64,000 nt of DNA from Firmicutes bacterium UBA5449. Its GTDB lineage: Bacteria > Bacillota > SHA-98 > UBA4971. The notes under the pieces were generated by a model. That model had not been told where the DNA came from. It did no database searches and saw nothing but the letters and a program-made list of their open reading frames with translations. Shown here piece by piece: positions 11,701-63,688 of the stretch; position 1 is the first letter of the stretch; every line of letters begins with the position of its first letter. The position numbers were made by a program, and so were the translations under genes. The stretch covers positions 226,335-290,334 of the forward strand of contig DIQZ01000035.1 of the NCBI GenBank assembly GCA_002424305.1, given 5' to 3'.

Positions 11701-11759
11701 ATCGTCTCGATAACATATCTAATTTACCACATTAAGATGTGTAGCATTCTCGCTTACGC

Positions 11760-15092: not shown

Positions 15093-15112
15093 CCTGGTTC
15101 ACGCTCCATTCT

Positions 15113-18145: not shown

Positions 18146-18222
18146 GCTACCAAGCCTCCTTATCCTGAAACAACCACACAAATTCAAATCGGCGTTTCAA
18201 GCTCATGCATAAGATCACATCA

Positions 18223-18717
18223 TCACTCATACTTGTCCAAGATAACCTTTATCTGATCTGATTTAACCCTTGCATATATGTCCTCATTGACTCTGACAAC
18301 AGGTCCAAGACCGCAAGCCCCCATACACCTGACAATCTCCACTGAAAATCTCCCGTCATCGGTAGTGTCTTCCCCCTTGACCCCCAGGTCTTCTCCGAGT
18401 TTCTCCATGATGGCGTCAACACCCTTGACATAACATGCCGTTCCCTTGCAAACGCTGATAACGTTCCTCCCCTTAGGCTTTAACGAGAACAACGCGTAAA
18501 ATGTAACAACACTGTAAACCTCACTAAGAGGGATATCCAGTCCCTCAGCAATCATGACCTGGATTTCTCTGGGAAGATAACCTACTACCTGCTGGGCTTC
18601 ATGCAAGACTTGAATCAAGACACCGGATTTACCTTCATAATAGTCGATTATCTCCCTGACCTTCTCTCTCTGTTCATCGGTAATTTCGCCAATGCATGTA
18701 CACGTCTCACAAGCCAT
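18223..18717 (-). CDS. hydC: HydC, NuoE-like thioredoxin-fold [2Fe-2S] subunit
   Basis: CKGTACYVKG...CMGACGLGPV motifs. 164 aa. RBS AGGAGGAATAGG. Confidence 0.85.
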   Translation of the reverse strand: MACETCTCIGEITDEQREKVREIIDYYEGKSGVLIQVLHEAQQVVGYLPREIQVMIAEGLDIPLSEVYSVVTFYALFSLKPKGRNVISVCKGTACYVKGVDAIMEKLGEDLGVKGEDTTDDGRFSVEIVRCMGACGLGPVVRVNEDIYARVKSDQIKVILDKYE

Positions 18718-18792
18718 ATACCTATTCCTCCTTACCGATCCTCAACCGTAAGTGGGGGCTGCATTCACTACCGAAAACTATAACCTATGTAT

Positions 18793-18808
18793 TGCAACAA
18801 TCATGCCA
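18793..18808 (-). promoter_or_regulatory. Sigma-54 (-24/-12) promoter TGGCATGATTGTTGCA upstream of hydC
   Basis: The reverse complement of 18793-18808 reads TGGCAT-N5-TTGCA, with exact GG-N10-GC spacing. It lies about 75 nt upstream of the hydC ATG. The adjacent gene encodes a sigma-54 activator. Confidence 0.6.
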
Positions 18809-19127
18809 CTCTACATGGCATTAGGAATATTGTCGTCAAACCCTTGTGAAAGACGTCACAAAGTCAATTATCATCCATGCAAAAGAGACAAACTCAACCT
18901 CAGGTTAATGCACTATTGCATTATTCTTGTAGAATTTTCCACCATATGCGCAAGTTTACTACTTTTGGGAGAACTCTATTCCATATTGAATTTAGATGCT
19001 TATTGTTTGTTTTGGCTTGAAGCTGGAAAAGGAGGTTGTCTTGGTCCGTTTACATCTTGACGACATAACACAGAGCCCACGAAAACGGCATAGAATGCAA
19101 GGTTGCATTGCTTAATGCCAACGCGCA

Positions 19128-28329: not shown

Positions 28330-29148
28330 ATGCATACCAGAATAAGAGTGATGGCTATAGACAATAGCATAGATGTCTGCGAGATGCTCAGGGATCTTGT
28401 CAAGAGCGATCCTGCATTGGAATGGGTCGGCTATGTCGAGGACGGACTTCTGGCCCTTGATAGAATCGGCAAATGGAAGCCTGATGTAATTCTCCTTGAT
28501 ATCATCATGCCGCAACTTGATGGAGTTGCCTTTCTTGAACAGCTAATTGAGATGTGCCCCATCAACAAACCAAAGATAATTGTCCTAAGCGCAGTCGGAG
28601 ATCAAGCTCTTATCCGAAGTCTTGCTCAACTAGGAGTTGACTACTACCTTCTCAAGCCGGTTGACGCCTCTATTCTCATTAACAGAATCAAGCAAGTCGT
28701 ACGAGAACGTGATTCTAAATCCGGCGAAACTTCAAGCTGTATACAACGGAAACCACCGGACAAGGATACAGAAACGCATGTGGCTCGACTCCTTTTCCAG
28801 CTTGACGTGCCTACCCATTTTAAAGGTTACCTATATCTCAAGGACGCGATTTCTATGATCATTGAAGAAACCGGTCTCTATACACCAGTCACCACTACCC
28901 TTTACATGGAGATAGCCAATAAACACGGCACTACACCTTCTGTAGTAGAAGCCGCTGTCAGGTACGCTATTCAACAAACCTGGAAAAGGGGGAATCTTAA
29001 GCGACTTAAGAAGCTCTTTGGTGCTTTCTCAGACTTAGATGAAGATCGAATGCCCACTAACTCTTTATTCATGACAAGAGTAGCTGAAGAAATCAAAGTC
29101 AGCTTAGCCGATTCACGTAAACACTATGTGTATAAGGAAACTATCTGA
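28330..29148 (+). CDS. spo0A: Stage 0 sporulation protein A (response regulator)
   Basis: Receiver domain with the phosphoacceptor LDIIMPQLDG and the conserved Lys. The Spo0A-specific C-terminal DNA-binding domain is present (HFKGYLYLKDAI..., AVRYAIQQTWKRGN). Confidence 0.9.
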   Translation: MHTRIRVMAIDNSIDVCEMLRDLVKSDPALEWVGYVEDGLLALDRIGKWKPDVILLDIIMPQLDGVAFLEQLIEMCPINKPKIIVLSAVGDQALIRSLAQLGVDYYLLKPVDASILINRIKQVVRERDSKSGETSSCIQRKPPDKDTETHVARLLFQLDVPTHFKGYLYLKDAISMIIEETGLYTPVTTTLYMEIANKHGTTPSVVEAAVRYAIQQTWKRGNLKRLKKLFGAFSDLDEDRMPTNSLFMTRVAEEIKVSLADSRKHYVYKETI

Positions 29149-29169: not shown

Positions 29170-30561
29170 TTATATTAGCTCAAAGCCGCCGGTTTCAGCT
29201 TTCTTGACTTCCTCCTCTTCGCCTGTCTCCGCATTTATGTAAACCACATATATATCCTTGCCTAGCTTACATCGAAACTCGTATACCTGCTTTTCCCGAT
29301 AGAAATCATCGAGTATGACAGCCAGCCCGGAGCTTACCACAGTCAATCTGGGATTCAGCCCTTCCCTTGCTTCCGCCTCAGAAAGCTCAGGTTCTTTCAG
29401 CGCTCTAATCTTATGAAAAATCTGGTAATTAGTGCCTTCAAAGCCGTCCACGCGTCCTTCATCCAATGCTACCCTGACCACAACGTAATCAGGATATATC
29501 AGAACCCCGTTTTGCTCATAGGCAAACCCAATAGCAGATACACCCTGGTAATCGCGTCTGGAAATTTCACGCATGTTTTGAAAACCCTGGGACGTAAGAA
29601 ACGTCTTGGCTATAGCTACAGCCGTAGCCGGCGAAATAGTTTGAGAACCGATAGCAGACTCCTTAAACATCCACAAGACTCTTCCGCCACGCACTGATAC
29701 ATCTGCCCATACTTTGGAAACCCCGCCTTTGGGAGGGGTTATTTCCACTCTATAACTCTTAGGTTCAGAAGATATCGTGGTAATGACCTTGCCTCTGGCG
29801 CCTTTTTCTATAGAATATCCTGCGAATTCCATCGCGATTTTTATGGCCTCATCTGTCCCGATTTCAGGGCCGGGAATAGAAGGCAGCTTCTTTCTGGGAG
29901 GTGGAATGACCCCTTCAAAATCGGGCGTGGGGAATCTCGTCATTCCGTCCTCAAGCATCTTGAGACCCTTTGTAACCTGATTTGAGGGCGCACCCTGTGT
30001 CCTCTCTCCTTCAGGACGCATAGCTGAAGTAGTCATACTTTCACGCTGAACGTCTATCCACCTGAGTTTCCCGGAGGCCATCTCCCCGCCTAAGCGAGTA
30101 AGTTCCTCAGCAGCAAACCTGGCTTGATCTCGGAGATCTCGCAAGAGTGCCCATTCTCTATCTGAGAGGCTACTCCCATGAGAGCCGGTCTGCGACAGAG
30201 TATAGGTAAATGAAGCCACCTGTGACAGGAAATCCTCAGTGGAAGAAAGCTGAATTGTGCCCACAGGAAGTTGGCCCAGCCCTGACCTGGCAGACTCAGT
30301 ATGCCTCCAAGCATCTGCAAAGGCTTTTTGGGTCTGCAAAAGCGAACCTGACACTGCTGCCTTCCCAAGCTCCTCAGCGAGGGAATCAACGTGATAGACA
30401 ACTTCCTGGAATGCACGTTGATACTGATTTTCGGTCTTAAGCTCCACTTCTTTCCTCAAAGCGTACTCACGGATCCCAACAAAGCCTGCTATTACAACAA
30501 CTACGGCTAAGGCCGTCCATCCCCATCTTTGCCTCATTCTCACCACCTCGCAACCAATCAC
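29170..30561 (-). CDS. ypeB: Germination protein YpeB (PepSY-domain membrane protein)
   Basis: N-terminal TM with C-terminal PepSY repeats. It overlaps the upstream sleB by 4 nt (ATGA), the typical sleB-ypeB operon arrangement. Confidence 0.75.
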   Translation of the reverse strand: MIGCEVVRMRQRWGWTALAVVVVIAGFVGIREYALRKEVELKTENQYQRAFQEVVYHVDSLAEELGKAAVSGSLLQTQKAFADAWRHTESARSGLGQLPVGTIQLSSTEDFLSQVASFTYTLSQTGSHGSSLSDREWALLRDLRDQARFAAEELTRLGGEMASGKLRWIDVQRESMTTSAMRPEGERTQGAPSNQVTKGLKMLEDGMTRFPTPDFEGVIPPPRKKLPSIPGPEIGTDEAIKIAMEFAGYSIEKGARGKVITTISSEPKSYRVEITPPKGGVSKVWADVSVRGGRVLWMFKESAIGSQTISPATAVAIAKTFLTSQGFQNMREISRRDYQGVSAIGFAYEQNGVLIYPDYVVVRVALDEGRVDGFEGTNYQIFHKIRALKEPELSEAEAREGLNPRLTVVSSGLAVILDDFYREKQVYEFRCKLGKDIYVVYINAETGEEEEVKKAETGGFELI

Positions 30562-31067
30562 CTAAGGAAGATATGTCTTCCTATTTGAATAATGTAACTC
30601 CTGGTAGCAACCCACCAATTGGTAGCCTTAGCAGGGTTATAATAGTAAACTGCACCTCCTGAAGGATCCCAACCGGCTAAGGCGTCCTGTGCAGCCCGAT
30701 AAGAGGAAGAGACCGGAGGAAACCATACATGTCCTGTAGTGACTGCAGTAAAAGCATCCGGTTCAAAGATCACTCCCGGAATGGTCTTGGGGAAATGTGG
30801 ATGGTTCAACCTGTTCAAGATTACGGCCCCAACGGCAACTTGACCTATGTATGGCTCACCTTTTGCTTCCGCAGAGATAACTCTTGCCATCAGTTCCAGG
30901 TTATAGCTATAGCTTTGTCCGGGATCAGCCAAATCAAACTCTGCCGTGTCCGCCAAGTAAGAAAGCCTGTCATTGAAGACTCTTCCTGACTGGACATGCC
31001 ATAGAACCGTGACTACTGCCACAACAACAGTGAAAGCAAAAATAAGCCTACTGACTCTGATTGACAC
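30558..31067 (-). CDS. sleB: Spore cortex-lytic enzyme SleB-like (Hydrolase_2 domain; no PG-binding domain)
   Basis: Signal/TM followed by a SleB catalytic-domain-like sequence (ISAEAKGEPYIGQVAVGAVILNR...YYYNP). It lies upstream of ypeB. Confidence 0.75.
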   Translation of the reverse strand: MSIRVSRLIFAFTVVVAVVTVLWHVQSGRVFNDRLSYLADTAEFDLADPGQSYSYNLELMARVISAEAKGEPYIGQVAVGAVILNRLNHPHFPKTIPGVIFEPDAFTAVTTGHVWFPPVSSSYRAAQDALAGWDPSGGAVYYYNPAKATNWWVATRSYIIQIGRHIFLR

Positions 31068-33248: not shown

Positions 33249-33881
33249 TTAGTACTCAATTCCTCTACGCGCAGCTATACCCTGAGCATAGGGGTGCCTC
33301 ACTTGCCTCATCTCTGTAATCAGATCCGCCAACGCCAGGATTTCTTCAGGCATGTTTCTGCCGGTGAGAACGATTTCAGTGTGACTGCACTTTTCCTCTA
33401 TCAATCTAACTACATCATCTACTGTAAGCAAGTGAAAATTGATAGCAAGAGATATTTCATCGAGGATCAGAATGTCAACGTCACCTCTTGTAGAGACCTC
33501 CAGAGCCAGACTCAACCCCTTTTCCGCCAGCATTCGATCTTCATCAGTTATTTCCCCGATGCGAAGCATACATTCAGCACAACCTTGGCATCTGAGGAAA
33601 CCCTGTTTTATTGCAGAAGACCGCCTACAATCTCGCCCAAATCGGTGAATTTGAATTTCAGGGTGCAGACGTTGCAGAGAATAGAGCTCTCCCGTATAGC
33701 TGACACCTTTCGCAAATTGAATGATCACTACAGAAAGCCTATGGCCACAAGCCCTCAAAGCAAGGCCCAGTGCGGCAGTGGTCTTTCCTTTGCCATCACC
33801 TGTATAGACCTGGACAAGACCTAACCCGGATTCATCCTCACCTTTCGTGGCCTCAGAGAGGCCTTCAATTTCGAGGTCCAT
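33249..33881 (-). CDS. cobO: Cob(I)yrinic acid a,c-diamide adenosyltransferase (CobO/BtuR type)
   Basis: VYTGDGKGKTTAALGLALRA P-loop and the CobA/CobO fold. The start is probably Met28 of the track ORF, which avoids overlap with btuD. Confidence 0.75.
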   Translation of the reverse strand: MDLEIEGLSEATKGEDESGLGLVQVYTGDGKGKTTAALGLALRACGHRLSVVIIQFAKGVSYTGELYSLQRLHPEIQIHRFGRDCRRSSAIKQGFLRCQGCAECMLRIGEITDEDRMLAEKGLSLALEVSTRGDVDILILDEISLAINFHLLTVDDVVRLIEEKCSHTEIVLTGRNMPEEILALADLITEMRQVRHPYAQGIAARRGIEY

Positions 33882-33913
33882 GTTATCACCCTCAATCTCT
33901 GAGGAATTACCCT

Positions 33914-34708
33914 TCAACTTGCCGGGCTCATGAAACCCGGCACTAACATGACCTGAGGACAACCAACCACCGGATGAGTAGTGATATGCGCTTTAACACC
34001 GTATACTTTCTTCAGAATCTCTTCTGTTACGACTTCCTGAGGCGGACCGTCTGCCACTTTCCTCCCGTGATTCAACATGACTAGTCTGTCGCAGTACTGG
34101 GAAGCCAGGTTAACATCATGCAAGACAGCTAATACCGCGATATTTTCAAATCGAGACAAAGACTTGAAAAGATCCATAATCTCTACCTGGTAACCAGGAT
34201 CAAGATGTGAGGTAGGCTCATCTAACAACAAAATACCCGGCTCCTGAGCGAGGGCTCGCGCAATAATCACCCTTTGCTTCTCACCGTAAGATAGCTCAAG
34301 AACAGACCTCTTAGCAAGGTGAGTTGTGCTTGTAGCTGCCATAGCCTGAAAAACAATGTCCATATCTTGTGGGCTCTCTCGTGAAAACCTCCCCTTGTGA
34401 GGTTCGCGGCCCATCAACACTATCTCAAGAACAGAGAAAGGAAATGGTATTGTTCCGTTTTGAGGCACCACTGCTATCTTTTGCGCAATTACCTTAGGCA
34501 CCATATCGCCAATATCTTCACTGTCAAGGAGGATTGTCCCCATACTGGGTTTCAAGGCGCCTGCCAGCAGTCGAAGCAGCGTGGTCTTTCCTGAACCGTT
34601 AGAACCCAAAATACCGACGAAGTCTCCGCTTTCCAGAGACACTGACACCTTGTCTATAGCTTCTATTATACCGTACTTATGACATACGGAAAACGCTTCC
34701 AATCTCAC
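33914..34708 (-). CDS. btuD: ABC transporter ATP-binding protein (FecE/BtuD family)
   Basis: GSNGSGKTTLL, LSYGEKQR and LLLDEPTSHLD motifs. It sits in an operon behind a cobalamin riboswitch. Confidence 0.8.
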   Translation of the reverse strand: MRLEAFSVCHKYGIIEAIDKVSVSLESGDFVGILGSNGSGKTTLLRLLAGALKPSMGTILLDSEDIGDMVPKVIAQKIAVVPQNGTIPFPFSVLEIVLMGREPHKGRFSRESPQDMDIVFQAMAATSTTHLAKRSVLELSYGEKQRVIIARALAQEPGILLLDEPTSHLDPGYQVEIMDLFKSLSRFENIAVLAVLHDVNLASQYCDRLVMLNHGRKVADGPPQEVVTEEILKKVYGVKAHITTHPVVGCPQVMLVPGFMSPAS

Positions 34709-34739
34709 ATTTTGTCCCCTTACTCTCTGAACTCACACA

Positions 34740-35807
34740 TTAGCTCCCCCGAATTTTGCGTCGTCTCAAAATGCAAAGAAAAAAAGGCGCACCTACAAGT
34801 GCAGTAATAACACCTACAGGAATCTCCGCCGGAGCAATTAACGTGCGAGCACAAGTGTCTGCCGTTACAAGAAATATGCCGCCTGCGATGGTAGAAGCAG
34901 GCAACAGCAACCTGTGATCCGGACCGAGAACCATTCGCATTGTATGTGGCACGATAAGCCCCACAAACCCAATCACTCCACCAACGGAAACAGAGGCTGC
35001 AGTCACTACGGAGGAAGCTATCACAGCAATACGTTTTGACTGTCCGGGATCAACACCCAGGTACCGCGCTTCATCATCGCCGAGGCAGATCAAGTTTAGA
35101 TCGCGCGCCATAATTATGAGAACAGCAATACCGAAAATCCAATATGGAGCAGCCATTTTCACATGCACGTATCCTTTGTTTGAAAGACTTCCCATGAGCC
35201 ACATCATGATTTCCCGGAGTGAATCGCCGGAAACCATCATGACAAGGGACATAACCGCCCATAGGAATGAACTTACAACGACCCCCGAAAGAAGAAACGC
35301 ATCCATAGACGCTCTGCCTGAGACTCCGGCAAGAGAGTATACTACCGCCATAGTGATAATAGAAGCCAGGAATGCTGCAACAGGCACAGAATTCAGTCCG
35401 GGAATGAAAGACGGCAACCTGAACGAAATGGCGATTGTCGCTCCTAAAGCTGCGCCTGAAGATATTCCCATGATATAAGGATCCGCCAAGGGGTTGCGAA
35501 ACAGACTTTGAAGAGTAGCACCTGCGCCCGCCAGAGAACTCCCGATTATTATAGCAAGCAGAATTCGGGGAAGTCTTACCTCAAGGATTATCGTTTCATA
35601 TGCGTCAGGCCATCCTGTATGTGGTATCCACTTACTTACATAAGGAAGACGTCTGAGCAGTATAGAGATCACGTCAGGTAAAGGAATCGATACGGCACCT
35701 ACTCCTGCTGCAATAGCCATAGCTGTCAAGAGAAGAAACGTTAGTGTAACGAAGCACCTATACCGTCTGTCCCTATAGGCTGAGTACGCCACAGGATCCG
35801 GTTTCAT
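34740..35807 (-). CDS. btuC: ABC permease, FecCD/BtuC family
   Basis: 355 aa with about 9-10 TM helices and the FecCD signature. Confidence 0.8.
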   Translation of the reverse strand: MKPDPVAYSAYRDRRYRCFVTLTFLLLTAMAIAAGVGAVSIPLPDVISILLRRLPYVSKWIPHTGWPDAYETIILEVRLPRILLAIIIGSSLAGAGATLQSLFRNPLADPYIMGISSGAALGATIAISFRLPSFIPGLNSVPVAAFLASIITMAVVYSLAGVSGRASMDAFLLSGVVVSSFLWAVMSLVMMVSGDSLREIMMWLMGSLSNKGYVHVKMAAPYWIFGIAVLIIMARDLNLICLGDDEARYLGVDPGQSKRIAVIASSVVTAASVSVGGVIGFVGLIVPHTMRMVLGPDHRLLLPASTIAGGIFLVTADTCARTLIAPAEIPVGVITALVGAPFFLCILRRRKIRGS

Positions 35808-35879
35808 TGTTTATTGTATCTCCTTTTATCTACGTCAAGCTTGCTACCACCCATAACAGTTGCACCCAACAGAGCAGAC

Positions 35880-36851
35880 TTAATCATGAGACCCCGGATG
35901 CATAATGTCCAGAAGCACCTCAAGGCCTTGAACCAACCTGGGACCGGGACGGGTTAGGATATCAGGATTTACTCGGTGAATCCTCCGTGTCTTGCAGGCA
36001 GAAATCCCTTTCCAAGCAGATCTTCCAAGCACATCATCCTTATCTGTCCATACCGTAATTATCACATCCGGATCCCTTTCAATGACTACCTCTACACTGA
36101 ATTCAGGCCATTCCAAACCTGCGTCACCTGCGATGTTTTCCCCGCCTGCAACCTTAATAAGCTCATCAATAAAAGTACCGGGTCCCGCAGTCATTAAGGG
36201 GTCATCCCATATCTCCACAAATACTCGTGGTCTGGCTTGTTTCGTCACGGCCAAAGCTGCCTTTGATCGCACACCTTGAATCTCATTGCTGAGGCTCTGC
36301 ACAAGCAATTCCGCTGCGTCCTCTGTTCCGGTTGCCTTACCTACCAAAACAATGCTATCTAAGACATCTCTGAGTGTCTTCGGATCCAGTGCCAGAACAG
36401 GTATGCCAAGATTAGACAGGGTTTCAATAACAGGCAACTGCATGCTTCCAACTGCGACCACGAGATCCGGAGATATCTCCATTATCTTCTCAATATTCAT
36501 CTCTACTTGGCCGACCTTAGGTTTTGACTTCGCCTCCTTGGGGTAATCACATGCCTCTGTAACACCGACAACTCTGTCACCTAGACCCAGAGCGAACAGA
36601 ATCTCCGTGTTACTTGGCGCAATAGACACGATGGTCTCAATGGGAAGTTCCAATTTCACCTCCCTGCCCAAGGCATCTATGACTGTGACTTCACCCTCTG
36701 TGACATTTGCCGAGACCCCCATGGCCAAGATGCAAAATGCAGCAATGATAATGCCAAAAATCATGACTTGTGAGAGCGCAGTCCGCATCCGAAAACCTAA
36801 GTGGCTCACATATTGCTTACGACCCACACTACGACACTGCTTACGATCCAC
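35880..36851 (-). CDS. btuF: Periplasmic binding protein, BtuF/FhuD class (cobalamin/siderophore)
   Basis: Signal peptide (MRTALSQVMIFGIIIAAFCILAMG if the start is at 36788) and a class III binding-protein fold. The track start at 36851 is a GTG inside a 21-nt tandem repeat, so the true start is uncertain. Confidence 0.7.
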   Translation of the reverse strand: MDRKQCRSVGRKQYVSHLGFRMRTALSQVMIFGIIIAAFCILAMGVSANVTEGEVTVIDALGREVKLELPIETIVSIAPSNTEILFALGLGDRVVGVTEACDYPKEAKSKPKVGQVEMNIEKIMEISPDLVVAVGSMQLPVIETLSNLGIPVLALDPKTLRDVLDSIVLVGKATGTEDAAELLVQSLSNEIQGVRSKAALAVTKQARPRVFVEIWDDPLMTAGPGTFIDELIKVAGGENIAGDAGLEWPEFSVEVVIERDPDVIITVWTDKDDVLGRSAWKGISACKTRRIHRVNPDILTRPGPRLVQGLEVLLDIMHPGSHD

Positions 36852-36949: not shown

Positions 36950-37195
36950 CCAAAATAAGCTTTTGGCTTGAAACTCCCTTTCACCGAAGGCGTACCAAGC
37001 TACCCTAGACAGGCAGGTCTCCTGGCTTCCGAATCATTGCATGCTCCTAAGCCTTCCTCACATTGAGTGGCTAAATAAGGATGCTCCTCGGATACAGTGG
37101 CGGGAACCGCGGGATTGCAGGATATCGCCTGCTTCCTCTTCCCTATTCTCCCCTAATAGGGGCACCTGTCGGGTCTCAGATTAAATTTTGCAACA
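36950..37195 (-). promoter_or_regulatory. Cobalamin (AdoCbl) riboswitch aptamer
   Basis: B12 box GCCACUG is present (reverse complement of cagtggc at 37096-37102) in the context GCGGUUCCCGCCACUGU. An upstream GGGAA element is present. It sits 5' of the btuFCD-cobO operon. Confidence 0.75.
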
Positions 37196-48080: not shown

Positions 48081-49031
48081 TCATGCCCAGCGCTTTTCCA
48101 CTTTCACGTCCTTGAAGAAATATGTGCAGATCTGCTCGTGACGTTTTCCCGTCTTTGCCATATTATGTGCACCCCACTGCGATAATCCGACTCCGTGGCC
48201 GAATCCTTTGCCTTCCATCATGACTTTGCCATTCTTCACTTCCAGGCTTGTCAGGTAATTTGACCTCATGCGCATTGGATCTAAGGCAACACGGAAGTTA
48301 TTTCCTCCGATAGTGGTCGTACTGCCTGAATGCTGAATAGCTATTATCTCCGCCCGTCCTGAGGGTCCTCGCTTAGCTATTGTCAAGTCTTGAATGCCTT
48401 TGACATTCAGTCCGACTTCAGCAAGGGCAGCTTCAATCTCACCTGTGGAGAACTCCGCTTTCCATCTTCGATCAGAAAGAGGCACATCTTCTGTGTCATC
48501 AGGGCTATCCTTGACAACGGTATACGTGGGCTCCGGGCCGGAGAAATTTAGGCCTTCTTTTGCTAACGCTGTTTTCCCGCCTGCGTTTGAATGGAACCAT
48601 GCATTAATTAGCTTTCCTCCCTCAGTCAAGACCTTTCCGCGTGTCGCTTTGACAGCTGCCTTTATTGCGTCGTTGACATTTTCAGGCTTGTACTCCTGAG
48701 CCTCCTTAAACCCGGCCTCTATATCCGAGCCCATAGGACCTGATCCACGCTTTTCTTCCAGCGTCTTCAGGGCAAAGGTTCGTGCTACTATGGCCTGAGC
48801 AGCAAGGGCTTCGTGAGGCCAGTAGTTCTTCATCTCACCTCCGACTACTGCTGCGATGTACTCCTCCATAGGCATTTCCAGAACCTTCTTCTCATCATCA
48901 ATGTACACCCTGATAGTTGGCTCCTTCCCAAGAGCAACTCGCCTTGATTTTGAAATTCCTAAGGATACGACAATTACGGCGAGGAGTCCAATACCAATCC
49001 AAGTTAAGGTTTTCCTGCGATTATCGATCAC
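48081..49031 (-). CDS. spoIID: Stage II sporulation protein D (SpoIID/LytB domain)
   Basis: N-terminal TM plus a SpoIID domain (EEYIAAVVGGEM...ALKAQAIVARTFAL). Confidence 0.8.
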   Translation of the reverse strand: MIDNRRKTLTWIGIGLLAVIVVSLGISKSRRVALGKEPTIRVYIDDEKKVLEMPMEEYIAAVVGGEMKNYWPHEALAAQAIVARTFALKTLEEKRGSGPMGSDIEAGFKEAQEYKPENVNDAIKAAVKATRGKVLTEGGKLINAWFHSNAGGKTALAKEGLNFSGPEPTYTVVKDSPDDTEDVPLSDRRWKAEFSTGEIEAALAEVGLNVKGIQDLTIAKRGPSGRAEIIAIQHSGSTTTIGGNNFRVALDPMRMRSNYLTSLEVKNGKVMMEGKGFGHGVGLSQWGAHNMAKTGKRHEQICTYFFKDVKVEKRWA

Positions 49032-55354: not shown

Positions 55355-57064
55355 TTACTTGCTAAGTCTCCAGTAAATCGGGTTCTTCTTCAGTCTGACA
55401 TACTCGCCCACCTTGTACTGGTCTAGGATGAACGGACCCTGTCCGATGGCCTTGGTGAGGCCTGGAACTGTTGGATGAGACTCAAGCCACGGCTCAAAGG
55501 TCTTATAATCCTTTACGTCCTTCCAGATCCATTCCGGTAGGAAGGATAGGTCAGCGTGATATAGATGCCAGTAGCTCTCAGTTGAGAAGTAGACCTTGGC
55601 GGTGTATTCGTCAGGAGTCTCTACCTTGACAACTTCATTGACTGAGGAGAGGTATCTTGGAACCTTGTTATCACGCAGGTACTCAATGGTGAACTTGATA
55701 TCCTTGGATGTAAATGGGGTAGTATCCTGCCACTTGATACCCTTCTCCAGATGCCACGTGACAACAGTACCCTTCTTGCCGGGTTCAGGCTCCCAAGTGC
55801 CAACCTCCCAGCTCTTGGCCATCCAAGGCATGTCTTCCATAGTCTCAGGGTTGACTTCCATCAAGTTGTCGTAGAGCCTACCGAGAACTTCCCACTCGTA
55901 AGCGCTACTTGAGGTACATGGGTTGAGAACTTTCGGCTCTTCAGGAAGCAGCCAGCGAATAGTTCCGCCTTTACCTCTAACTGGCTTAACATTAAGAGTC
56001 GTCCACTTGTTTTGATAGTTGGCTGCGCCATAACCATGCATTGGCACATAACCTGTAAACTTATCCTTACGGAATGCGTCCATGTAAGGTCTGGAGTACA
56101 GTACAGTGTACGGCTGCCTTCTGGCAAGAATGACCTGTGCTTCGTCAGCTGCCTTCTTTGCAACTTCCTCACTAGGTGCATAATAGAGGGCTTCAAGAAC
56201 CTTGTCTAGTTCAGCGTCGCGGATACCGGGCCTGTTGTAGCCGGCTTCAACATCATTAGATGAGTGGAAGAAGCTGTGTAACGAGGTAGGTATACGGCTT
56301 AGACCCCAGGCCAACATATACATGTCGAACTCTGCCATATCTAGTTTATCCAGCATAACCGGGAAGTCCATTGGCTCCGGCTCGATAGGCAGGTTTATTG
56401 CCTGGCAAGCTTCAGCAATGATCTTTCCTAGTTCTGCGGAAGTCGGAGCAACCTCATATGTAGGTGTAAAAATAGTCATCTTACGCAAAGGTTTTCCGGT
56501 TGCAGGATCAATTCGAATACCGGTGGCCGGATCTACCGTGTAGCCGGCTTTATCCAGAAGCTTCTTGGCCTCTTCCGGATTATATGGGAAACGAGGTATA
56601 TCTTCTTTGTAGAATCCACTGGATGGAGGCACGAATGTAGCCATAGGCAGCATATAGCCCTCAAAAAGTGTCTGGATAATATTGTCACGGTCTATGACGT
56701 GTGCGATAGCTTGACGGAGAACATCTGCATCAAGAGGCCCACGCCTCATGTTGTAGCATAGATAGAACATATGGAAACCATAATTCATCGTGAGCTCCGC
56801 ATTGGGATTAGCCTTTATCTTGTTAATGTCAGCAGGCCTTGTCAGGCCGGGTAACACGTCAACATCACCACGGTTGAACGCGATGAGTTGTGCCTCACTG
56901 TCTTTAATAATCGGCATGATAATCTGATCGACTTGTGGCCCGTAAGGTTCCCACTTGACCTTCTGCTGGGCAGTGACGATTCCGCACGTCATAGCCAGAA
57001 TAAGGCAAATGGCAACAGGCAAAAGGAATCTTCTTAACTTCACGATTCTACCTCCTTTAGTCAT
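55355..57064 (-). CDS. oppA: Oligopeptide-binding protein OppA (SBP family 5)
   Basis: Signal peptide followed by a 569 aa family-5 solute-binding fold. It is the first gene of the opp operon. Confidence 0.85.
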   Translation of the reverse strand: MTKGGRIVKLRRFLLPVAICLILAMTCGIVTAQQKVKWEPYGPQVDQIIMPIIKDSEAQLIAFNRGDVDVLPGLTRPADINKIKANPNAELTMNYGFHMFYLCYNMRRGPLDADVLRQAIAHVIDRDNIIQTLFEGYMLPMATFVPPSSGFYKEDIPRFPYNPEEAKKLLDKAGYTVDPATGIRIDPATGKPLRKMTIFTPTYEVAPTSAELGKIIAEACQAINLPIEPEPMDFPVMLDKLDMAEFDMYMLAWGLSRIPTSLHSFFHSSNDVEAGYNRPGIRDAELDKVLEALYYAPSEEVAKKAADEAQVILARRQPYTVLYSRPYMDAFRKDKFTGYVPMHGYGAANYQNKWTTLNVKPVRGKGGTIRWLLPEEPKVLNPCTSSSAYEWEVLGRLYDNLMEVNPETMEDMPWMAKSWEVGTWEPEPGKKGTVVTWHLEKGIKWQDTTPFTSKDIKFTIEYLRDNKVPRYLSSVNEVVKVETPDEYTAKVYFSTESYWHLYHADLSFLPEWIWKDVKDYKTFEPWLESHPTVPGLTKAIGQGPFILDQYKVGEYVRLKKNPIYWRLSK

Positions 57065-57388
57065 GTTGTCTAAAGACCAATAAGACGTTAATCATATTCA
57101 ACACCTATACGACGCCCTTGGGGCTAGGTACCACCCCCTTGCCAGGTACTTACATATACTTAAGTAAATAGCTTTACCTTGCTTACCCATATAGTTCCTG
57201 GATAGATAGAAATAGGTTAGCTATGCAAGGCACATTATACATTTCCACATAGTCTTTGAAAATCCTTCTTTTACTTAAGCACAATGTAGCATATAGCAAT
57301 GAACTTAAAGCAATTATATCTAAACATACCTTATATTACCAGACCCATCATCATATTCATAATACTCACTCATTTCCTTAATGCCTGC

Positions 57389-60300
57389 TTAATCCGGAAT
57401 TTCCATAACATTCGTATGTATAGAGCTTGCTATTATACCGGGAATTTTGCCCCTTAAATCAACACGGCCTTCAACTATTATCATAGGTGCAGTAAACATT
57501 GCCCCAATACATTGTTTATATATACTCTCAAACACAGTAACATCAATAAGTCCGGTTTCATCTTCAAGGGCAAAGAACACAACAACCTTACCGCTTTTTG
57601 TCGGGGGTCGGTGTGGCCTTATTACAAGGCCTGCTACCTTCACATATGTTCCAATTGGCATCTCTCGGGCCATAGATGTAGTAATTATGTTATTCTTATT
57701 CAATTGGACGCGTTCTAATTCCATCGGATGCATGTTAGGGTGGAGTCCGAGCATATAAAACTCTCGCTTAAATTTCTCTCTGTCCGAAAAATCTTCTACA
57801 CGTGGCAGGATCATAGAGCCTCGTAATACTTTTGGAACCGCCCACAACATTGCCCTACGGTTACTATGGATATTGTCAAATGCCCCACAGAGTATTAAAT
57901 TCTCGAGAATATCTTGTGGCATAAATGCGCGCGAGACAAAGTCAAAAAGAGAATCATACTCGCAATCCCTACAAGACGTAATTATCTTCCGGGCAAGCTC
58001 CCTTTCCATACCACGAACTCTTTTCAACCCTATACGTATAGCCCCGTCTTCCACTGTAAATTCGTATGCGCTCCGATTTATGTCCACAGGAAGAATCTTG
58101 ACTCCACGCCTCCTTGCTTCAAGACATATAGTATTGGCAGGGTAAAACCCCATGGGTTGATTATTCAGTATGGCTGCATAAAACCGGGCAGGGAAATGCT
58201 TCAAAAGATAAGCCGTCTTATATGAAGTATCAGCAAATGCAGCAGCATGACCCTGACAAAAGCCGTATCCTGCGTACCCTACTATGTATGACAGAATAAT
58301 CTCTGCTACATCACGGGGAACTCCATTCTCAACAGCTTTCTTCACAAACTCCTCACCTATCTCGTCCATTTCCGCGCGGGATCGATGCCGAATCATCACT
58401 TTCCTGAGTCTGTCTGCTTCCCCGGGGGTAAAACCTGCAACTACACTTGCAATCTCTATTACCTGCTCCTGGTAAAGCACTACGCCATAAGTTTCTTTAA
58501 GGATCTTCTCCAACGAAGGATGCACATAAGTGACTTTTTCCAGTCCATGCCTTCTTGCGATAAAAGGTTCTACCATATTGCCTTGAATAGGACCGGGACG
58601 TATAAGAGCGATACTTGCAACTATATCCTCTATATCACTTGCGCCTAAGCGCCCCTGGAGAGCTCGCTGCGCAGGGCTCTCCAATTGAAAGACACCGATT
58701 GTCTCCCCTCTGTTAATCATGTTGTATGTGGCATCATCGTCTAACGGTATATTTTCAAGGTCCACTTCACCTAGAACCAGAGAGTCCTCTATTGCAGAGA
58801 GCATTCGTAAAGATAACAGATCCAGTTTAATAAGGCCGATTTCCTCTACATCATCCTTGTCAAACTGGATAATTACATCGCCGCCGGCTGATGTCTCAAG
58901 AGGAGATACTTCCACAAGAGGGACTCTGCTCACTACTAATCCACCTAAGTGGGTCCCTATGTGACGCGGCACACCTGCCAGAGCGCGGCATATTTCAAAA
59001 AGTCTGGAATACTTAGCAAAGGGAATATCCTTGTTGCAGAGCTCCGGATATTTTTCTATAGCCATTTCAATTTCATCAGCATGGACATGTGGCAGACGTT
59101 TTGCAAGCCTATCTATGTCAATCCGAGAAATACCCATGACTCGTCCTACATCCCGCACAGCTGAACGTGCTTTAAAAGTATTAAATGTACATACAGCAGC
59201 TACATGCTCTACACCATATTTATGCCGGACATATTCCTTTACCCTATCCCTTGCACGAGCATCGAAATCTATATCAATATCCGGTTTTTGTGCCCGTTCA
59301 AGGTTTAAGAACCTCTCGAAAATCAATCCCCGTGCAATAGGATCTACACAGGTTATGAAAAGACAGTAAGCCACTGCTGAATCTGCAGCAGAACCCCTCC
59401 CTGCAAATCTTATCCCTTCACGCTTCGCAAACATCACAATATCCCAAGCTACCAGGAAGTAGTCCTCATATCCAAGCGTGCAAATAATATGGATTTCATG
59501 TTCAAGCCTGGATTTTATCCTAGGAGTGATCTTTCGGTAACGAGACTTGGCACCTTTATATACAAGGTTCTTCAGATATTCGGCTGAAGTTGTACCGCAT
59601 GGCAAGGGAAACTGAGGGAAAAGCCTCCTACCCGGCAAAAGTCCGGATTCACAGCGAACAGCAATCTCCCCTGCCGTCATAATAGCCTCGGGACAAAAAC
59701 GGAATAAATGCTCCATCTCTTCAGTTGATTTCAAATAGTTTTCTGCATTTAATCTACGTTCAGGGTGCACGTCATCAAGCTTTGTAAGTGTCCTTATACA
59801 CGTTAGGACATCATGAATCATAAAGTTTTCTTTCTTCAAGTAATGGACATTATTTGTGGCACAAACGCCAACCCCGACCTTGTTCGCCAGTTCAACAAGG
59901 CGCGATAAGAGCCAAGCATTACCCGGTATGCGAAGGTTTTGAAGTTCGATATAAAACCTATCCATCCCAAAAATATGAGCATATTCTTGGGTAAGCTGAA
60001 GGGCACACCCAAATTTTCTGTCACGGATTAGCATAGGAATTGCGCCATGCATACATCCGGATAAAGCTATGATTCCCTCATTATGTTCTTTTAGGGATTC
60101 AAGACGGACTTTCGGTTGAAGCCTACGCCTTTTAAGTGTCTTCGGCGCCTTCGCTATATTCCTCCACTCTCTTGACATATACGCTTCTGTAAGGATCTGA
60201 GAAATATTTGAATATCCTTTAGGGTTTTCCGCCAGAAGCACAAGATGACTTCCATCCTCAAGTGTTACCTCTGCCCCATGGATGGGTTTTATCCCACATT

Positions 60301-60469
60301 CCTCAGCAACTTTTGTGAATCTTGCGGCTGCAGAAAGATTATTATGATCTGTAATAGCCATAGCACTCATACCAAGCGCTGCAGCGCTTCTGGAAAGCTC
60401 CTCAACACTTGATGCGCCGTCTTGAAAAGAAAAATATGAGTGAACATGAAGGTGGGCGAAGTTTTTCAC
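57389..60469 (-). CDS. dnaE2: Error-prone DNA polymerase DnaE2 (ImuC), a C-family alpha subunit lacking the C-terminal extension
   Basis: The start reads MKNFAHLHVHSYFSFQDGA, a PHP-domain signature, and the RBS AGAGGG precedes the GTG at 60469. Length is about 1027 aa. It is downstream of an imuB-like gene and a LexA box. Confidence 0.8.
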   Translation of the reverse strand: MKNFAHLHVHSYFSFQDGASSVEELSRSAAALGMSAMAITDHNNLSAAARFTKVAEECGIKPIHGAEVTLEDGSHLVLLAENPKGYSNISQILTEAYMSREWRNIAKAPKTLKRRRLQPKVRLESLKEHNEGIIALSGCMHGAIPMLIRDRKFGCALQLTQEYAHIFGMDRFYIELQNLRIPGNAWLLSRLVELANKVGVGVCATNNVHYLKKENFMIHDVLTCIRTLTKLDDVHPERRLNAENYLKSTEEMEHLFRFCPEAIMTAGEIAVRCESGLLPGRRLFPQFPLPCGTTSAEYLKNLVYKGAKSRYRKITPRIKSRLEHEIHIICTLGYEDYFLVAWDIVMFAKREGIRFAGRGSAADSAVAYCLFITCVDPIARGLIFERFLNLERAQKPDIDIDFDARARDRVKEYVRHKYGVEHVAAVCTFNTFKARSAVRDVGRVMGISRIDIDRLAKRLPHVHADEIEMAIEKYPELCNKDIPFAKYSRLFEICRALAGVPRHIGTHLGGLVVSRVPLVEVSPLETSAGGDVIIQFDKDDVEEIGLIKLDLLSLRMLSAIEDSLVLGEVDLENIPLDDDATYNMINRGETIGVFQLESPAQRALQGRLGASDIEDIVASIALIRPGPIQGNMVEPFIARRHGLEKVTYVHPSLEKILKETYGVVLYQEQVIEIASVVAGFTPGEADRLRKVMIRHRSRAEMDEIGEEFVKKAVENGVPRDVAEIILSYIVGYAGYGFCQGHAAAFADTSYKTAYLLKHFPARFYAAILNNQPMGFYPANTICLEARRRGVKILPVDINRSAYEFTVEDGAIRIGLKRVRGMERELARKIITSCRDCEYDSLFDFVSRAFMPQDILENLILCGAFDNIHSNRRAMLWAVPKVLRGSMILPRVEDFSDREKFKREFYMLGLHPNMHPMELERVQLNKNNIITTSMAREMPIGTYVKVAGLVIRPHRPPTKSGKVVVFFALEDETGLIDVTVFESIYKQCIGAMFTAPMIIVEGRVDLRGKIPGIIASSIHTNVMEIPD

Positions 60470-60479
60470 AGTTATCCCT

Positions 60480-60722
60480 CTAATCAAAAACCCTTGTCAA
60501 ATACCAGATGCCGTGTTCATTAAGACAAAGCTCATACACGCCGAAATTATGCGCTAATACCACATAAAAATGAAGCTCACCCCTGTCATCCCACCAATTA
60601 TTGATCTCACACCACTTATCTATAACAGATACCACCTGAAGCCAATTCCCTCTCCAATAAAACCTCTTAGGACTATTACTGTTTTCTGCTATAACACGAA
60701 GTGATTTTTTGACCCTCCTCAC
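60480..60722 (-). CDS. Small hypothetical Trp/aromatic-rich protein (51-80 aa) between imuB and dnaE2
   Basis: The ORF occupies the 200-nt space between the imuB stop and the dnaE2 start. The most likely start is the internal GTG at about 60635, which avoids the 47-nt overlap with imuB. No homology was recognised. Confidence 0.35.
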   Translation of the reverse strand: MRRVKKSLRVIAENSNSPKRFYWRGNWLQVVSVIDKWCEINNWWDDRGELHFYVVLAHNFGVYELCLNEHGIWYLTRVFD

Positions 60723-61977
60723 GAAAGTAACCCTCCAAAGCTAAGAGGAGCTTATCTCTTCTCGCCAATTGCAACTCTCTTCCGGAGAAAACAGTCCCGG
60801 AACCGAACCTCTCTTGAACTTCGCAGAGAACTTTATCCATAACCTTAGCTGAAGCTTGAACCTGATAAGGAGTGAACATATCTATCTGTAAATCTGTCTT
60901 TATAGGAACAAGCCCGTATGCTGTAACAGATATCGCACTTACAGGCTTATTTAAATCCCTGTCTCCAAAGGCTTCTTTTAAAAGGCGTTCACATATCCTA
61001 GGTAGGCCTCCATACATACTTACTCGTTTCGCAAGATGCTTTTTGCGACTAACTATGCTTCCGCAGCTGCATTCTAAAGCCATGTTAATTTCCCCGGCTG
61101 TCATATAGATTGCATCCAGCCTTTTCTCTAACAAAGATGCACCTTCATTTAGGACTGATAATAGGACTTGCCTATCTGAAATCAGCGAATCAAAGGTTTT
61201 CGAGAATTTTATATTATTCCGCGGAAAGACAGGCAATACGCTGGAATAGTCTATACCAAGACTATACTGATGAATGACGTGTCCTATCTGGCCGAACATA
61301 TCAATAAGGACTGATTTTTCCATGCTTTGAATTTCACCTATACACCCTACTCCAAGACGGCAGAGATAGGAAAGGACTTCTACATCCAGAGGCCATAGTA
61401 CGTTTACAGGAAGAGGCGCAAGAAACTCCTTTTCTTTATCTACAACAATATTTGCACCTATGTCTTTCCCACCGTGGGAGGGCATATGCCTCGGAAAGCT
61501 CTGAGCGCTCTTTATCTTAAATCCCGGAAGAATCCCGGATATAATACGGGCTACCAACTTACAGCGGGCAATTCCATATAAAGGTGAAATCCCTGCAATA
61601 CTTTTAACATGCTTAGAAATCTCGCCTAAGGTGTCAAACATGTGAGGATAATTGGGAAGTTCAATAAAAGCTTCATTTTGTTCCAAAGGTTCTACTGCCG
61701 GGCTGTATTCTGCGCATGCCTCCCAAACTTGTTTGGCAAAACCTGCATATCTCTGTAGCACATACTCTATTTCAACAAGATTAGGACACATAATGCGGGC
61801 TTGACGCGAATTCATCCCTTGCCTTACCCCTTTTCCCCTTGCTCCGGGGGATATATCTAAAACCTCCTGTCCTTTCATTACAGCAAAAGCTGCTTCATTA
61901 GAAAGACATTTATCTATTTTCATTTCAACTGCACAATAAAAATTAGGCAACCAAACATGACCCACCGTTTCAGGCAT
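60676..61977 (-). CDS. imuB: ImuB-like Y-family polymerase paralog (catalytically inactive)
   Basis: DinB-like fold (VWLPNFYCAVEM ... SPGARGKGVRQGM), but the catalytic Asp positions are replaced (W-L-P-N where DinB has D-M-D-C). It is the first gene of a LexA-controlled operon with dnaE2. Confidence 0.7.
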   Translation of the reverse strand: MPETVGHVWLPNFYCAVEMKIDKCLSNEAAFAVMKGQEVLDISPGARGKGVRQGMNSRQARIMCPNLVEIEYVLQRYAGFAKQVWEACAEYSPAVEPLEQNEAFIELPNYPHMFDTLGEISKHVKSIAGISPLYGIARCKLVARIISGILPGFKIKSAQSFPRHMPSHGGKDIGANIVVDKEKEFLAPLPVNVLWPLDVEVLSYLCRLGVGCIGEIQSMEKSVLIDMFGQIGHVIHQYSLGIDYSSVLPVFPRNNIKFSKTFDSLISDRQVLLSVLNEGASLLEKRLDAIYMTAGEINMALECSCGSIVSRKKHLAKRVSMYGGLPRICERLLKEAFGDRDLNKPVSAISVTAYGLVPIKTDLQIDMFTPYQVQASAKVMDKVLCEVQERFGSGTVFSGRELQLARRDKLLLALEGYFREEGQKITSCYSRKQ

Positions 61978-62003
61978 TTGAGCTCACCTTTTTAATGTTA
62001 AAT

Positions 62004-62054
62004 AGAACGTGTGTTCGCAACATTATTATATGTTCTTTCTGATTTTCCTGTCAA
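62004..62054 (-). promoter_or_regulatory. Consensus sigma-A promoter (TTGACA-18-TATAAT) with a LexA/Cheo box CGAACACACGTTC at the transcription start of imuB
   Basis: The minus-strand sense reads TTGACA (62054-62049), an 18-nt spacer, TATAAT (62030-62025), then GAAC-N4-GTTC (62016-62005). The ATG at 61977 follows the RBS AAAGGTGAG. Confidence 0.65.
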
Positions 62055-62154
62055 GACAGATAATGGCATAGGAGGATTTAATGGACTGAAAGTGAAATTT
62101 ATCGAGGGCGGAATCAAGCAGTCCAGCAGAATATAAATCAGGAGGCGTATATCA

Positions 62155-63237
62155 ATGGAAATCATCGAACAGATGAGAGAACATGATTACGAGCAAGTTG
62201 TATTCTGTAACCACAAAGCATCCGGACTTCGCGCCATAATTATAATTCACGATACCACACTGGGACCGGCAATCGGCGGCACACGCATGTGGCCATACAT
62301 AACAGAAGAAGAAGCAGTAATTGACGGATTACGCCTTGCCCGCGGCATGACTTACAAATGCGCAGCAGCAGGCCTAAATCTTGGAGGCGGAAAAGCTATA
62401 ATAATCGGCGATTCGCGGAAAGACAAATCTGAAGGGCTTTTTAGAGCATTCGGGAAGTTTGTGGATACATTAGGAGGCAGGTTCATCACAGGTGAAGATG
62501 TAGGCATCAGTCTTGAGGATGTAGATATTATAGGATGTGAAACCCGATGGATCGGAGGGTCATCTGAAAGCAGCGGTGACCCGGGACCTGTTACTGCCCA
62601 CGGAGTTTGGCACGGTTTAAAAGCATGCGCTAAATCAGCGTTTGGAGACGACTCTCTCAAAGGTCTCACCGTCGCAATCCAGGGAATGGGTAATGTCGGA
62701 TACCACCTGGCAAAACACCTCCACCGAGAAGGAGCAGAACTTATCGTAAGCGATATTTTTCCGGACAAAGCAAAAAGAGCGGAAAGAGAATTCCAAGCGA
62801 TAGCTGTAGAGCCGGAAGAAATCTACGGAGTTCCATGTGATATTTTTGCTCCATGTGCCCTCGGTGCCATAATCAATGATGATACTCTGTCACAACTCAA
62901 GTGCAAAGTAGTAGCGGGTTCAGCTAATAACCAATTGAAAGAAGATAAACACGGTGTAGCATTAGAGGATAGAGACATTCTTTACGCTCCGGACTTCATT
63001 ATTAACGCCGGCGGTGTCATCAATGTTGTTGACGGACTTTATGGATATAATCGCGAGCGCGCTATGAAAAAGGCATCAGAAATCTATGACACTATCTTAA
63101 AGGTATTTGAGATTTCAAAGCGAGATAAGATTCCCACCAACGATGCAGCGTTAAGACTTGCTGAAGAGCGAATAGAATTAGTGGCAAAGCTTTCGAGCAG
63201 ATTACGTTCAGGTCCCGGCAAGGGATTCATCATCTAG
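62155..63237 (+). CDS. Leucine dehydrogenase (Glu/Leu/Phe/Val dehydrogenase family)
   Basis: Catalytic Lys region GGGKAII and the NAD-binding [13 protein letters not shown]. 360 aa is typical of LeuDH. RBS AGGAGG. Confidence 0.8.

Positions 63238-63282: not shown

Positions 63283-63688
<406 letters not shown>

Follow-up and report, generated by a model that had tools for sequence, protein, structure and literature searches.

A LexA-box operon of an uncultured Bacillota bacterium that probably encodes a split-ImuB translesion-synthesis complex without ImuA

What is encoded when a Y-family DNA polymerase homolog without its usual catalytic residues, a small open reading frame (ORF) and a C-family DNA polymerase follow one another behind a single promoter? 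The question is raised by a stretch of 64,000 nucleotides (nt) from Firmicutes bacterium UBA5449 (contig DIQZ01000035.1), hereafter the window, in which these three co-oriented and coupled genes form a cassette on the minus strand (Table 1). A sequence-only reading of the window had taken them for an SOS-controlled imuB-dnaE2 mutagenesis cassette, lacking imuA and perhaps acquired horizontally, with the small ORF filling the gap between the two larger genes. The analysis reported here suggests that the locus is most probably a LexA-repressed operon for a 'split-ImuB' translesion-synthesis complex, of the kind denoted iPolY-ImuB-C-DnaE2X or imuY-imuB-C-dnaE2. The arrangement is not new, since this type has already been described in Deinococcus and some Firmicutes, and the cassette in the window adds a member to it.

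ImuA-less variants, of which K. tusciae is typical, combine an inactive Y-family polymerase (iPolY) with a stand-alone ImuB-C and DnaE2, and were described by Timinskas and Venclovas (2019), whose Table S4 lists ADI02886, ADI02885 and ADI02884 of Syntrophothermus lipocalidus in the order iPolY, ImuB-C, DnaE2. In their 2026 paper in Nucleic Acids Research (NAR), the class was named DnaE2X-iPolY-ImuBC-RecA, modelled with AlphaFold and regarded as a split ImuB; in the literature, RecA is proposed as the substitute for ImuA. The imuY-imuB-C-dnaE2 genes of D. deserti are experimentally required for ultraviolet (UV) mutagenesis, which in both D. deserti and D. ficus depends on ImuY and DnaE2 and is controlled by RecA/LexA.

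The small ORF is the ImuB-C domain in the form of a separate gene, i.e., the detached C-terminal domain of ImuB. Its residues 9-79 matched Pfam DUF6504 (E 2e-9), and the protein resembled the ImuB-C of K. tusciae (ADG05749; 32% identity, E 9e-11) and that of A. acidocaldarius (ACV58046; 28% identity, E 3e-9), both sequences as supplied with the 2026 NAR paper. When profiles were compared by hhalign, the ImuB-C family aligned to residues 425-472 of a canonical Agrobacterium ImuB (E 2.7e-4), the gene of which lies between imuA and dnaE2. A search of 1.84 billion representative proteins matched 120 clusters, nearly all of them stand-alone proteins of about 80 amino acids (aa) with the same invariant tryptophans, and one match (P0147) was a 398-aa protein in which IMS_C is followed by a fused DUF6504. 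Against the 416-aa 'hypothetical protein' encoded beside DnaE2 of Thermomicrobium roseum, the ImuB-C profile reached only E 0.039, and this match was not used. The AlphaFold2 model of ImuB-C is all-beta, with seven strands and a predicted local distance difference test (pLDDT) score of 90.6, and a Foldseek search of the PDB with it returned no match better than E 0.5. An all-beta model without a PDB neighbor agrees with the description of ImuB-C in the 2026 NAR paper as a beta-barrel of new fold with no solved relative. A small ORF of 51-80 aa does stand between the two larger genes, as the sequence-only reading had it, but it is neither a stand-in for ImuA nor a filler. Although an internal GTG would allow a form of 51 aa, the 80-aa form is favored, since residues 9-79 fall within the Pfam match, and 13 loci of the same lineage keep both the start codon and the ribosome-binding site (RBS; GGAGG or GGGAGG). 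Since ImuB-C is encoded separately, the Y-family gene is one half of a split ImuB (iPolY/ImuY) and not a typical ImuB.

The imuB-C gene overlaps the 3' end of the iPolY gene by 47 nt in the +1 frame, which raises the alternative that a programmed frameshift yields a fused ImuB of canonical length beside the separate proteins. The +1 frame and an overlap of 41-107 nt are indeed kept in all 14 loci of the lineage, the window included, and canonical ImuB has exactly this domain order, iPolY and then ImuB-C. Nonetheless, a programmed frameshift is highly improbable, considering that imuB-C has its own conserved RBS and start codon, that no slippery site was identified, and that the corresponding overlaps in S. 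lipocalidus and Phosphitispora are 4 and 8 nt, as is typical of translational coupling, with S. lipocalidus in a different relative frame.

The Y-family half of the split protein, which starts MPETVGHVWLPNFYCAVE, matched Pfam IMS (E 6e-22), and its best score on the NCBIfam models of Pol IV was 106 bits, missing all of the cutoffs (256-399 bits), so that by score it is not an active DinB/Pol IV. We take D8, D103 and E104 (native numbering) to be the catalytic residues of E. coli Pol IV. On alignment to that enzyme (PDB 4irc), D8 is replaced by W9, D10 by P11 and D103 by N101, while E104 is retained as E102. Both W9 and P11 are invariant in 12 aligned family members, and position 101 is occupied by N, S, T or H, never by D, in the eight members that were aligned with active DinBs. 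As these replacements are kept in the family, iPolY is, by alignment, catalytically dead, with two of its three catalytic carboxylates lost family-wide; the sequence-only reading had already called it a dead paralog, and the first two catalytic acidic residues are in fact absent on correct alignment (W9, N101). Two motifs lie toward the other end of the protein. A regular-expression match and the alignment placed a beta-clamp-binding motif, QIDMF, where active DinB homologs have QLSLF, and its residues D366, M367 and F368 are invariant in the iPolY family. The best match of the protein to the RecA N-terminus, here called the RecA-NT-like motif, scored 42 against residues 8-31 of K. tusciae RecA, a score reached by one of 2000 shuffles (moderate statistical support), and its E389, F391 and G392 are likewise invariant. 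As a separate observation, the family carries between palm and thumb an insertion of about 30-70 aa relative to active DinBs, variable in length among clades, which in the window's iPolY comprises residues ~148-177 (window ~61447-61536).

The third gene encodes a C-family polymerase that begins (M)KNFAHLHVHSYFS. Its length is 1026 aa, one less than first reported, from a GTG at 60469 that lies 10 nt past the imuB-C stop and behind a GAGGG RBS; an upstream TTG would give 1032 aa. The protein contains the PHP, Pol3 alpha, finger, HhH and OB domains (Pfam), it retains the catalytic residues D397, D399 and D550, and it ends right after the OB fold, without the C-terminal (tau-binding) domain of about 84 aa found in E. 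coli DnaE. The clamp motif QxxLF had no match anywhere in this polymerase or in four relatives, and the QADMF region of E. coli DnaE aligns to a gap in it. The NCBIfam models could not separate DnaE1 from DnaE2, the scores being 890 bits on PRK05673 (DnaE1) and 860 bits on PRK05672 (error-prone), both below cutoff; thus, domain content, motifs and a small tree were used instead. Over the N-terminal 395 aa, the identity was 56% to DnaE2 of S. lipocalidus, 49% and 45% to DnaE2X of K. tusciae and A. acidocaldarius, respectively, 30-37% to the five DnaE2A sequences used as references, and 35-36% to the two DnaE sequences compared, E. coli DnaE1 and one borne on a Streptomyces plasmid. In a neighbor-joining tree of the same residues, the polymerase grouped with the DnaE2X of S. 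lipocalidus, K. tusciae and A. acidocaldarius, in a clade separate from DnaE2A; this small tree had two DnaE outgroups, neither of them clostridial, and without a clostridial DnaE1 its placement of the sequence in DnaE2X is supportive and not conclusive.

The polymerase might instead be the replicative DnaE of the organism, namely, a clostridial DnaE1-type partner of PolC. Its slightly higher score on PRK05673 than on PRK05672, both below cutoff, its nearly intact PHP site, and the name 'DNA polymerase III subunit alpha' given by NCBI to its relatives all lean that way. We nevertheless regard this as extremely unlikely. The two elements missing from it, the C-terminal domain and the QxxLF motif, are both present in clostridial DnaE1; its gene lies in a LexA-box operon together with a dead Y-family gene and ImuB-C, and is interrupted in some contigs; and the protein clusters with published DnaE2X. 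Moreover, in published surveys a DnaE2 always occurs together with a polymerase from a different group, and those Clostridia that have it also carry PolC and DnaE1; in the polymerase survey of 2013, DnaE2 never stood alone in this sense, and the combination of PolC, DnaE1 and DnaE2 was recorded in a few Clostridia. A text search of the supplements of that survey for the polymerase complement of S. lipocalidus gave no match.

The PHP site of this DnaE2-type enzyme has the signature HHDHEHCNH, in which eight of the nine metal ligands are kept and the one deviation from the canonical HHDHEH[C/H]DH is D207N (window ~59849-59851). The same signature was found in 102 of 120 relatives (P0183-P0302) and in the DnaE2 of Thermomicrobium roseum, while 14 of the 120, mostly of a distant clade of metagenome-assembled genomes (MAGs), have the fully canonical HHDHEHCDH; typical DnaE2 proteins, in contrast, have scattered and non-conserved substitutions (e.g., Atu_E2A). 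Taq Pol III alpha in PDB 3e0d has the same Asp-to-Asn change, which we take to be an engineered PHP mutation there. Two related proposals follow from the site. Loss of the PHP metal site is the normal state in DnaE2X polymerases. Eight ligands kept with a fixed Asp-to-Asn change, together with all nine in a sister group, may mean that the PHP site of this Bacillota clade has a retained or repurposed function, as a switchable proofreader or as a metal-dependent docking site for ImuB-C; we consider this unlikely, although if true it would make the split mutasome mechanistically different from the mycobacterial one, and the mutasome would also work beside a PolC-based replisome, a combination seldom seen in published surveys. 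The other proposal is that the system serves a damage tolerance that is not particularly mutagenic, with a DnaE2X of (partly) functional PHP site that, once SOS is induced, fills gaps or achieves restart with fair accuracy. Conservation of the eight ligands implies selection on the site, as this proposal would have it, yet the proposal is itself unlikely: a published criterion holds any deviation from the PHP motif to be inactive, and this deviation is the one seen in 3e0d; the PHP domain is the predicted docking surface of ImuB-C, which could explain its conservation; and the homologous Deinococcus cassette is mutagenic. Accessory, DnaE2-type translesion synthesis remains the preferred reading. 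The description of the polymerase as an error-prone DnaE2 holds insofar as it clusters with published DnaE2X and not with the two DnaE references, while 'error-prone' is unproven for an enzyme with a near-intact PHP site. Apart from this, the DnaE2 proteins of the distant clade (L018-L024) are 1096-1185 aa long, with insertions of ~70-95 aa near query residues 102-112 and 883-891 that are too short for typical inteins.

Control of the three genes was examined at their common upstream end. The TTGACA-18-TATAAT promoter claimed by the sequence-only reading, with a LexA box GAAC-N4-GTTC at +1, is present and conserved across loci, and within 56900-62300 it is the sole 12/12 match to the sigma-70 consensus. 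The box, CGAACACACGTTC, begins 7 nt past the -10 hexamer and is the sole GAAC-N4-GTTC in the window. By count alone it is not significant, since 16 of 100 shuffles contained the 13-mer and 54 of 100 the 12-mer, and its significance therefore rests on position and conservation. In 13 orthologous promoters of the same spacing, TTGACAGG is invariant at -35 and ATATA.TA at -10. Of the 16 loci, 15 have the half-sites CGAAC and GTTC without change, and S. lipocalidus has GTTT for GTTC; the 4-nt core of the operator and the surrounding bases vary. Measured from the start of the -35 hexamer, the box is found 37-39 nt away in all 16 loci, but anything from 11 to 71 nt separates it from the start codon. 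Judged from these alignments, the fixed distance between box and promoter clearly marks out a promoter-proximal LexA operator by phylogenetic footprinting, and the Cheo-type box at +1 in 16 loci lends computational support to SOS (LexA/RecA) control. A single promoter of consensus sequence, its start site covered by a conserved operator, would thus drive three translationally coupled genes.

Two further features of this region deserve mention. A block just upstream of the -35 hexamer (62055-62072, minus strand) is kept in the 13 promoters of the same spacing, reading ATGCCATTATCTGTC in the window and ATGGCAGTATTTGTC in the distant clade, and could be an UP element or the site of a second regulator. 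The divergent gene for a Glu/Leu/Phe/Val-type dehydrogenase (LeuDH; earlier named 'bcd'), starting at 62155, shares a 177-bp intergenic region with the cassette promoter.

The cassette is not confined to the window. Identical or near-identical copies of the locus were found on several metagenomic contigs and in an NCBI MAG (GCA_036783485.1), and a scan of one genome per GTDB species added 12 uncultured Bacillota species in which the three genes recur in unchanged order, the identity to the window proteins being 37-66% for iPolY, 49-75% for ImuB-C and 62-83% for DnaE2. Triplets of IMS, DUF6504 and DnaE also occur in the cultured S. lipocalidus and Phosphitispora sp. TUW77, so the small ORF, for which the sequence-only reading had left synteny to be checked, is conserved with the cassette in all of these. 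In the 12 species, the cassette occupies the same site, in the order rnpB, LeuDH, cassette and SBP_bac_5 ABC transporter, one flank being undetected in a few loci, while the identity of the flanking genes falls from 88% to 71% for LeuDH and from 91% to 79% for rnpB.

This recurrent context bears directly on the earlier suggestion that the cassette is a recently acquired horizontal island. Some features of composition agree with an island: the cassette has a slightly lower GC content than the window (0.433 against 0.473), its GC at third codon positions (GC3) is 0.36-0.38 against 0.44-0.53 for most neighbors, and an AT-rich spacer lies on one side. However, the adjoining LeuDH gene is also low in GC3 (0.40), no integrase, tRNA or repeats were found at the cassette borders, and the context recurs in 12 species with flanking identity down to ~71% (rnpB, ~79%). 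Recent acquisition is therefore very unlikely. The recurrent context and the falling identity of LeuDH and rnpB indicate, as far as sequence comparison goes, a long-resident cassette inherited vertically at one chromosomal site; the AT-rich spacer, rnpB and the dehydrogenase gene are where the sequence-only reading placed them, while the acquisition drawn from them is unsupported.

Damaged copies were also encountered in metagenomic contigs. In one, from the window's own species, dnaE2 is frameshifted and split at about codon 40 (L006); in another, it is frameshifted and split into 925 and 180 aa (L007); and in a third (L010), the promoter and the N-terminal half of iPolY are deleted, leaving its C-terminal 210 aa, and LeuDH and rnpB are absent from their usual upstream place. 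Such copies fit a dispensable accessory function, being either natural loss-of-function variants or assembly errors.

Other variation was seen between imuB-C and dnaE2. Some related species carry an element of 210-340 nt between the imuB-C stop and the dnaE2 start, where the window has 10 nt. It contains internal repeats, e.g., CCGCACGGTACGTAC...TTTCTGAGGCC, and the RBS and GTG of dnaE2 are intact after it, although gene callers wrongly extended dnaE2 through it to 1110 aa; its appearance is that of a small mobile element or repeat. In S. lipocalidus (L032, 4439-5001), the corresponding spacer is 560 nt long and has two copies of a repeat of ~100 nt (CCACAGATG.ACACTGACCCGGCACTCAGCTCAAGTCTTTG...). 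In addition, one contig labelled as a 'Betaproteobacteria bacterium' MAG (L023, JBLNCC010000086.1) has a Bacillota-type cassette in the same rnpB/LeuDH neighborhood, and is probably mis-binned.

How the proteins may work together was deduced by homology to the mycobacterial and Caulobacter ImuA-ImuB-DnaE2 mutasome, the D. deserti cassette and the published AlphaFold models. DNA damage would lead to RecA filaments and hence to self-cleavage of LexA, by which the operon would be derepressed. The dead Y-family protein would then serve as the organizing scaffold, docking on the sliding clamp at the stalled fork and binding RecA through its RecA-NT motif, with RecA replacing the missing ImuA. ImuB-C and the thumb of the scaffold would hold DnaE2 through its PHP and HhH regions, and DnaE2 would carry out low-fidelity bypass of the lesion, leaving damage-induced mutations.

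The absence of ImuA from this scheme agrees with the gene content: no RecA-fold or imuA gene was found in the cassette or in a Pfam scan of 36 large ORFs outside it (of the 51 window ORFs of at least 150 aa), and to that extent the earlier claim that imuA and imuA' are missing is borne out, the flanking genes being LeuDH and that of the SBP_bac_5 transporter. Several points nonetheless weigh against the assignment as a whole. The iPolY of the window had no significant BLASTP similarity to that of K. tusciae (E 0.41), and belongs to a narrow family of its own that was seen only in uncultured Bacillota MAGs, so that the case for class membership is made by architecture, ImuB-C and DnaE2, without appeal to orthology of iPolY. 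The near-intact PHP site is unusual for a DnaE2, and the tree covered the N-terminal 395 aa with the two non-clostridial DnaE outgroups given above. No second dnaE, polC, lexA or recA was present among the 36 scanned ORFs, a result that covers the 64-kb window only. Finally, induction, complex formation and mutagenesis in this organism are all inferred.

Table 1. Positions of the cassette, its regulatory sites and the other features discussed (window coordinates unless a contig is named)
Feature	Position	Strand	Basis or remark
-35 hexamer TTGACA	62049..62054	minus	consensus match
-10 hexamer TATAAT, 18-nt spacer from -35	62025..62030	minus	consensus match
LexA operator (Cheo-type box) CGAACACACGTTC, overlapping the predicted +1	62005..62017		CGAAC-N4-GTTC
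iPolY/ImuY-like inactive Y-family homolog, 433 aa, N-terminal part of split ImuB	60676..61977	minus	Pfam IMS
beta-clamp-binding motif QIDMF, iPolY residues 364-368	60874..60888	minus	regular expression and alignment
RecA-NT-like motif MDKVLCEVQERFGSGTVFSGRELQ, iPolY residues 380-403	60769..60840	minus	local match to RecA N-terminus
stand-alone ImuB-C, 80 aa, GTG start	60480..60722	minus	Pfam DUF6504
DnaE2-type (DnaE2X-like) C-family polymerase, 1026 aa	57389..60469	minus	domains and motifs
AT-rich intergenic spacer, cassette to downstream oligopeptide-type ABC transporter operon	57065..57388	minus	GC ~0.35-0.37
Glu/Leu/Phe/Val-type dehydrogenase (LeuDH)	62155-63237	plus	
rnpB	63289-63683	minus	
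Spo0A	28330-29148	plus	
YpeB	29170-30561	minus	
SleB-type cell-wall hydrolase	30558-31067	minus	
SpoIID-domain protein	48081-49031	minus	
inserted element in the imuB-C/dnaE2 gap of related loci	L008 3508-3726; L014 3636-3846; L015 8495-8832		

The AT-rich spacer holds promoter-like sites for the SBP_bac_5 gene, and a search of it for intrinsic terminators found none; related loci have an ordinary intergenic region at this point. The Spo0A, YpeB, SleB-type hydrolase and SpoIID-domain genes of the window confirm an endospore-forming organism, in agreement with the sporulating genome that had been surmised. Elsewhere, a T-box leader (Rfam, 94.6 bits; 11422-11711) lies upstream of a 1060-aa class I aminoacyl-tRNA synthetase (8189-11371), and a cobalamin riboswitch (36995-37184) lies upstream of a minus-strand operon (33249-36851) for a periplasmic binding protein, a FecCD permease, an ABC ATPase and a corrinoid adenosyltransferase. 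Genes at 13368-20456 encode an [FeFe]-hydrogenase large subunit, a 1024-aa fusion of NuoF-like and pyridine-nucleotide-disulphide-oxidoreductase type, and a NuoE-like 2Fe-2S protein, and are adjoined by a sigma-54 activator with an N-terminal 4Fe-4S domain; these genes fit an anaerobic, hydrogen-cycling organism.

The current understanding of SOS mutagenesis is unchanged by the cassette. What it adds to the hosts of the ImuA-less split-ImuB mutasome is an uncultured lineage of spore-forming, anaerobic Bacillota from digester and fermentation metagenomes. The assignment is also of use in annotation, as the genes now appear in NCBI under the names 'DNA polymerase III subunit alpha', 'DNA polymerase IV' or 'hypothetical protein'. 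The cultured carriers, Syntrophothermus lipocalidus and Phosphitispora, are candidate models for how RecA replaces ImuA.

Comparison with known systems places the cassette as follows. E. coli Pol V (UmuD'2C-RecA-ATP) is likewise an SOS-induced, multi-subunit translesion polymerase, with a Y-family subunit that binds RecA by a RecA-NT-like motif and a small beta-rich accessory protein, but that subunit is active, UmuD' is unrelated to ImuB-C, and there is no C-family polymerase. The Geobacter-type lexA-imuB-C-polY operons and the clostridial pairs of YqjH and ImuB-C share a stand-alone ImuB-C beside an SOS-controlled Y-family gene, and differ in that the Y-family polymerase is active and DnaE2 is absent. 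With the canonical ImuA-ImuB-DnaE2 (ImuC) mutasome of Caulobacter, M. tuberculosis and Pseudomonas, the cassette has in common an SOS-induced, dead Y-family scaffold with clamp and RecA-NT motifs, and the logic is alike in that ImuB-C contacts DnaE2 and DnaE2 is the catalytic polymerase; unlike it, the cassette has no ImuA or ImuA', its ImuB is split into two genes, and its polymerase belongs to the DnaE2X and not the DnaE2A clade. The Deinococcus version has the same architecture, namely, a Y-family homolog, an 80-aa ImuB-C and DnaE2 without ImuA under RecA/LexA control, and is the only one whose role in UV-induced mutagenesis has been proved genetically; its operon, however, starts with lexA, whereas that of the window has none and its control is deduced from the operator, and the phylum and the type of LexA box differ. 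Finally, the cassette agrees with the type represented by S. lipocalidus, K. tusciae and A. acidocaldarius in its genes and their order, the lack of imuA, the inactive Y-family protein with a RecA-NT-like motif, the stand-alone ImuB-C of ~80 aa, and a DnaE2 that clusters with published DnaE2X (45-56%). It departs from this type in the longer overlap of iPolY and imuB-C (41-107 nt in the window lineage versus 4-8 nt elsewhere) and in a PHP site more intact than in the DnaE2X of K. tusciae or A. acidocaldarius, and it shares with the S. lipocalidus locus the same layout of promoter and LexA box.

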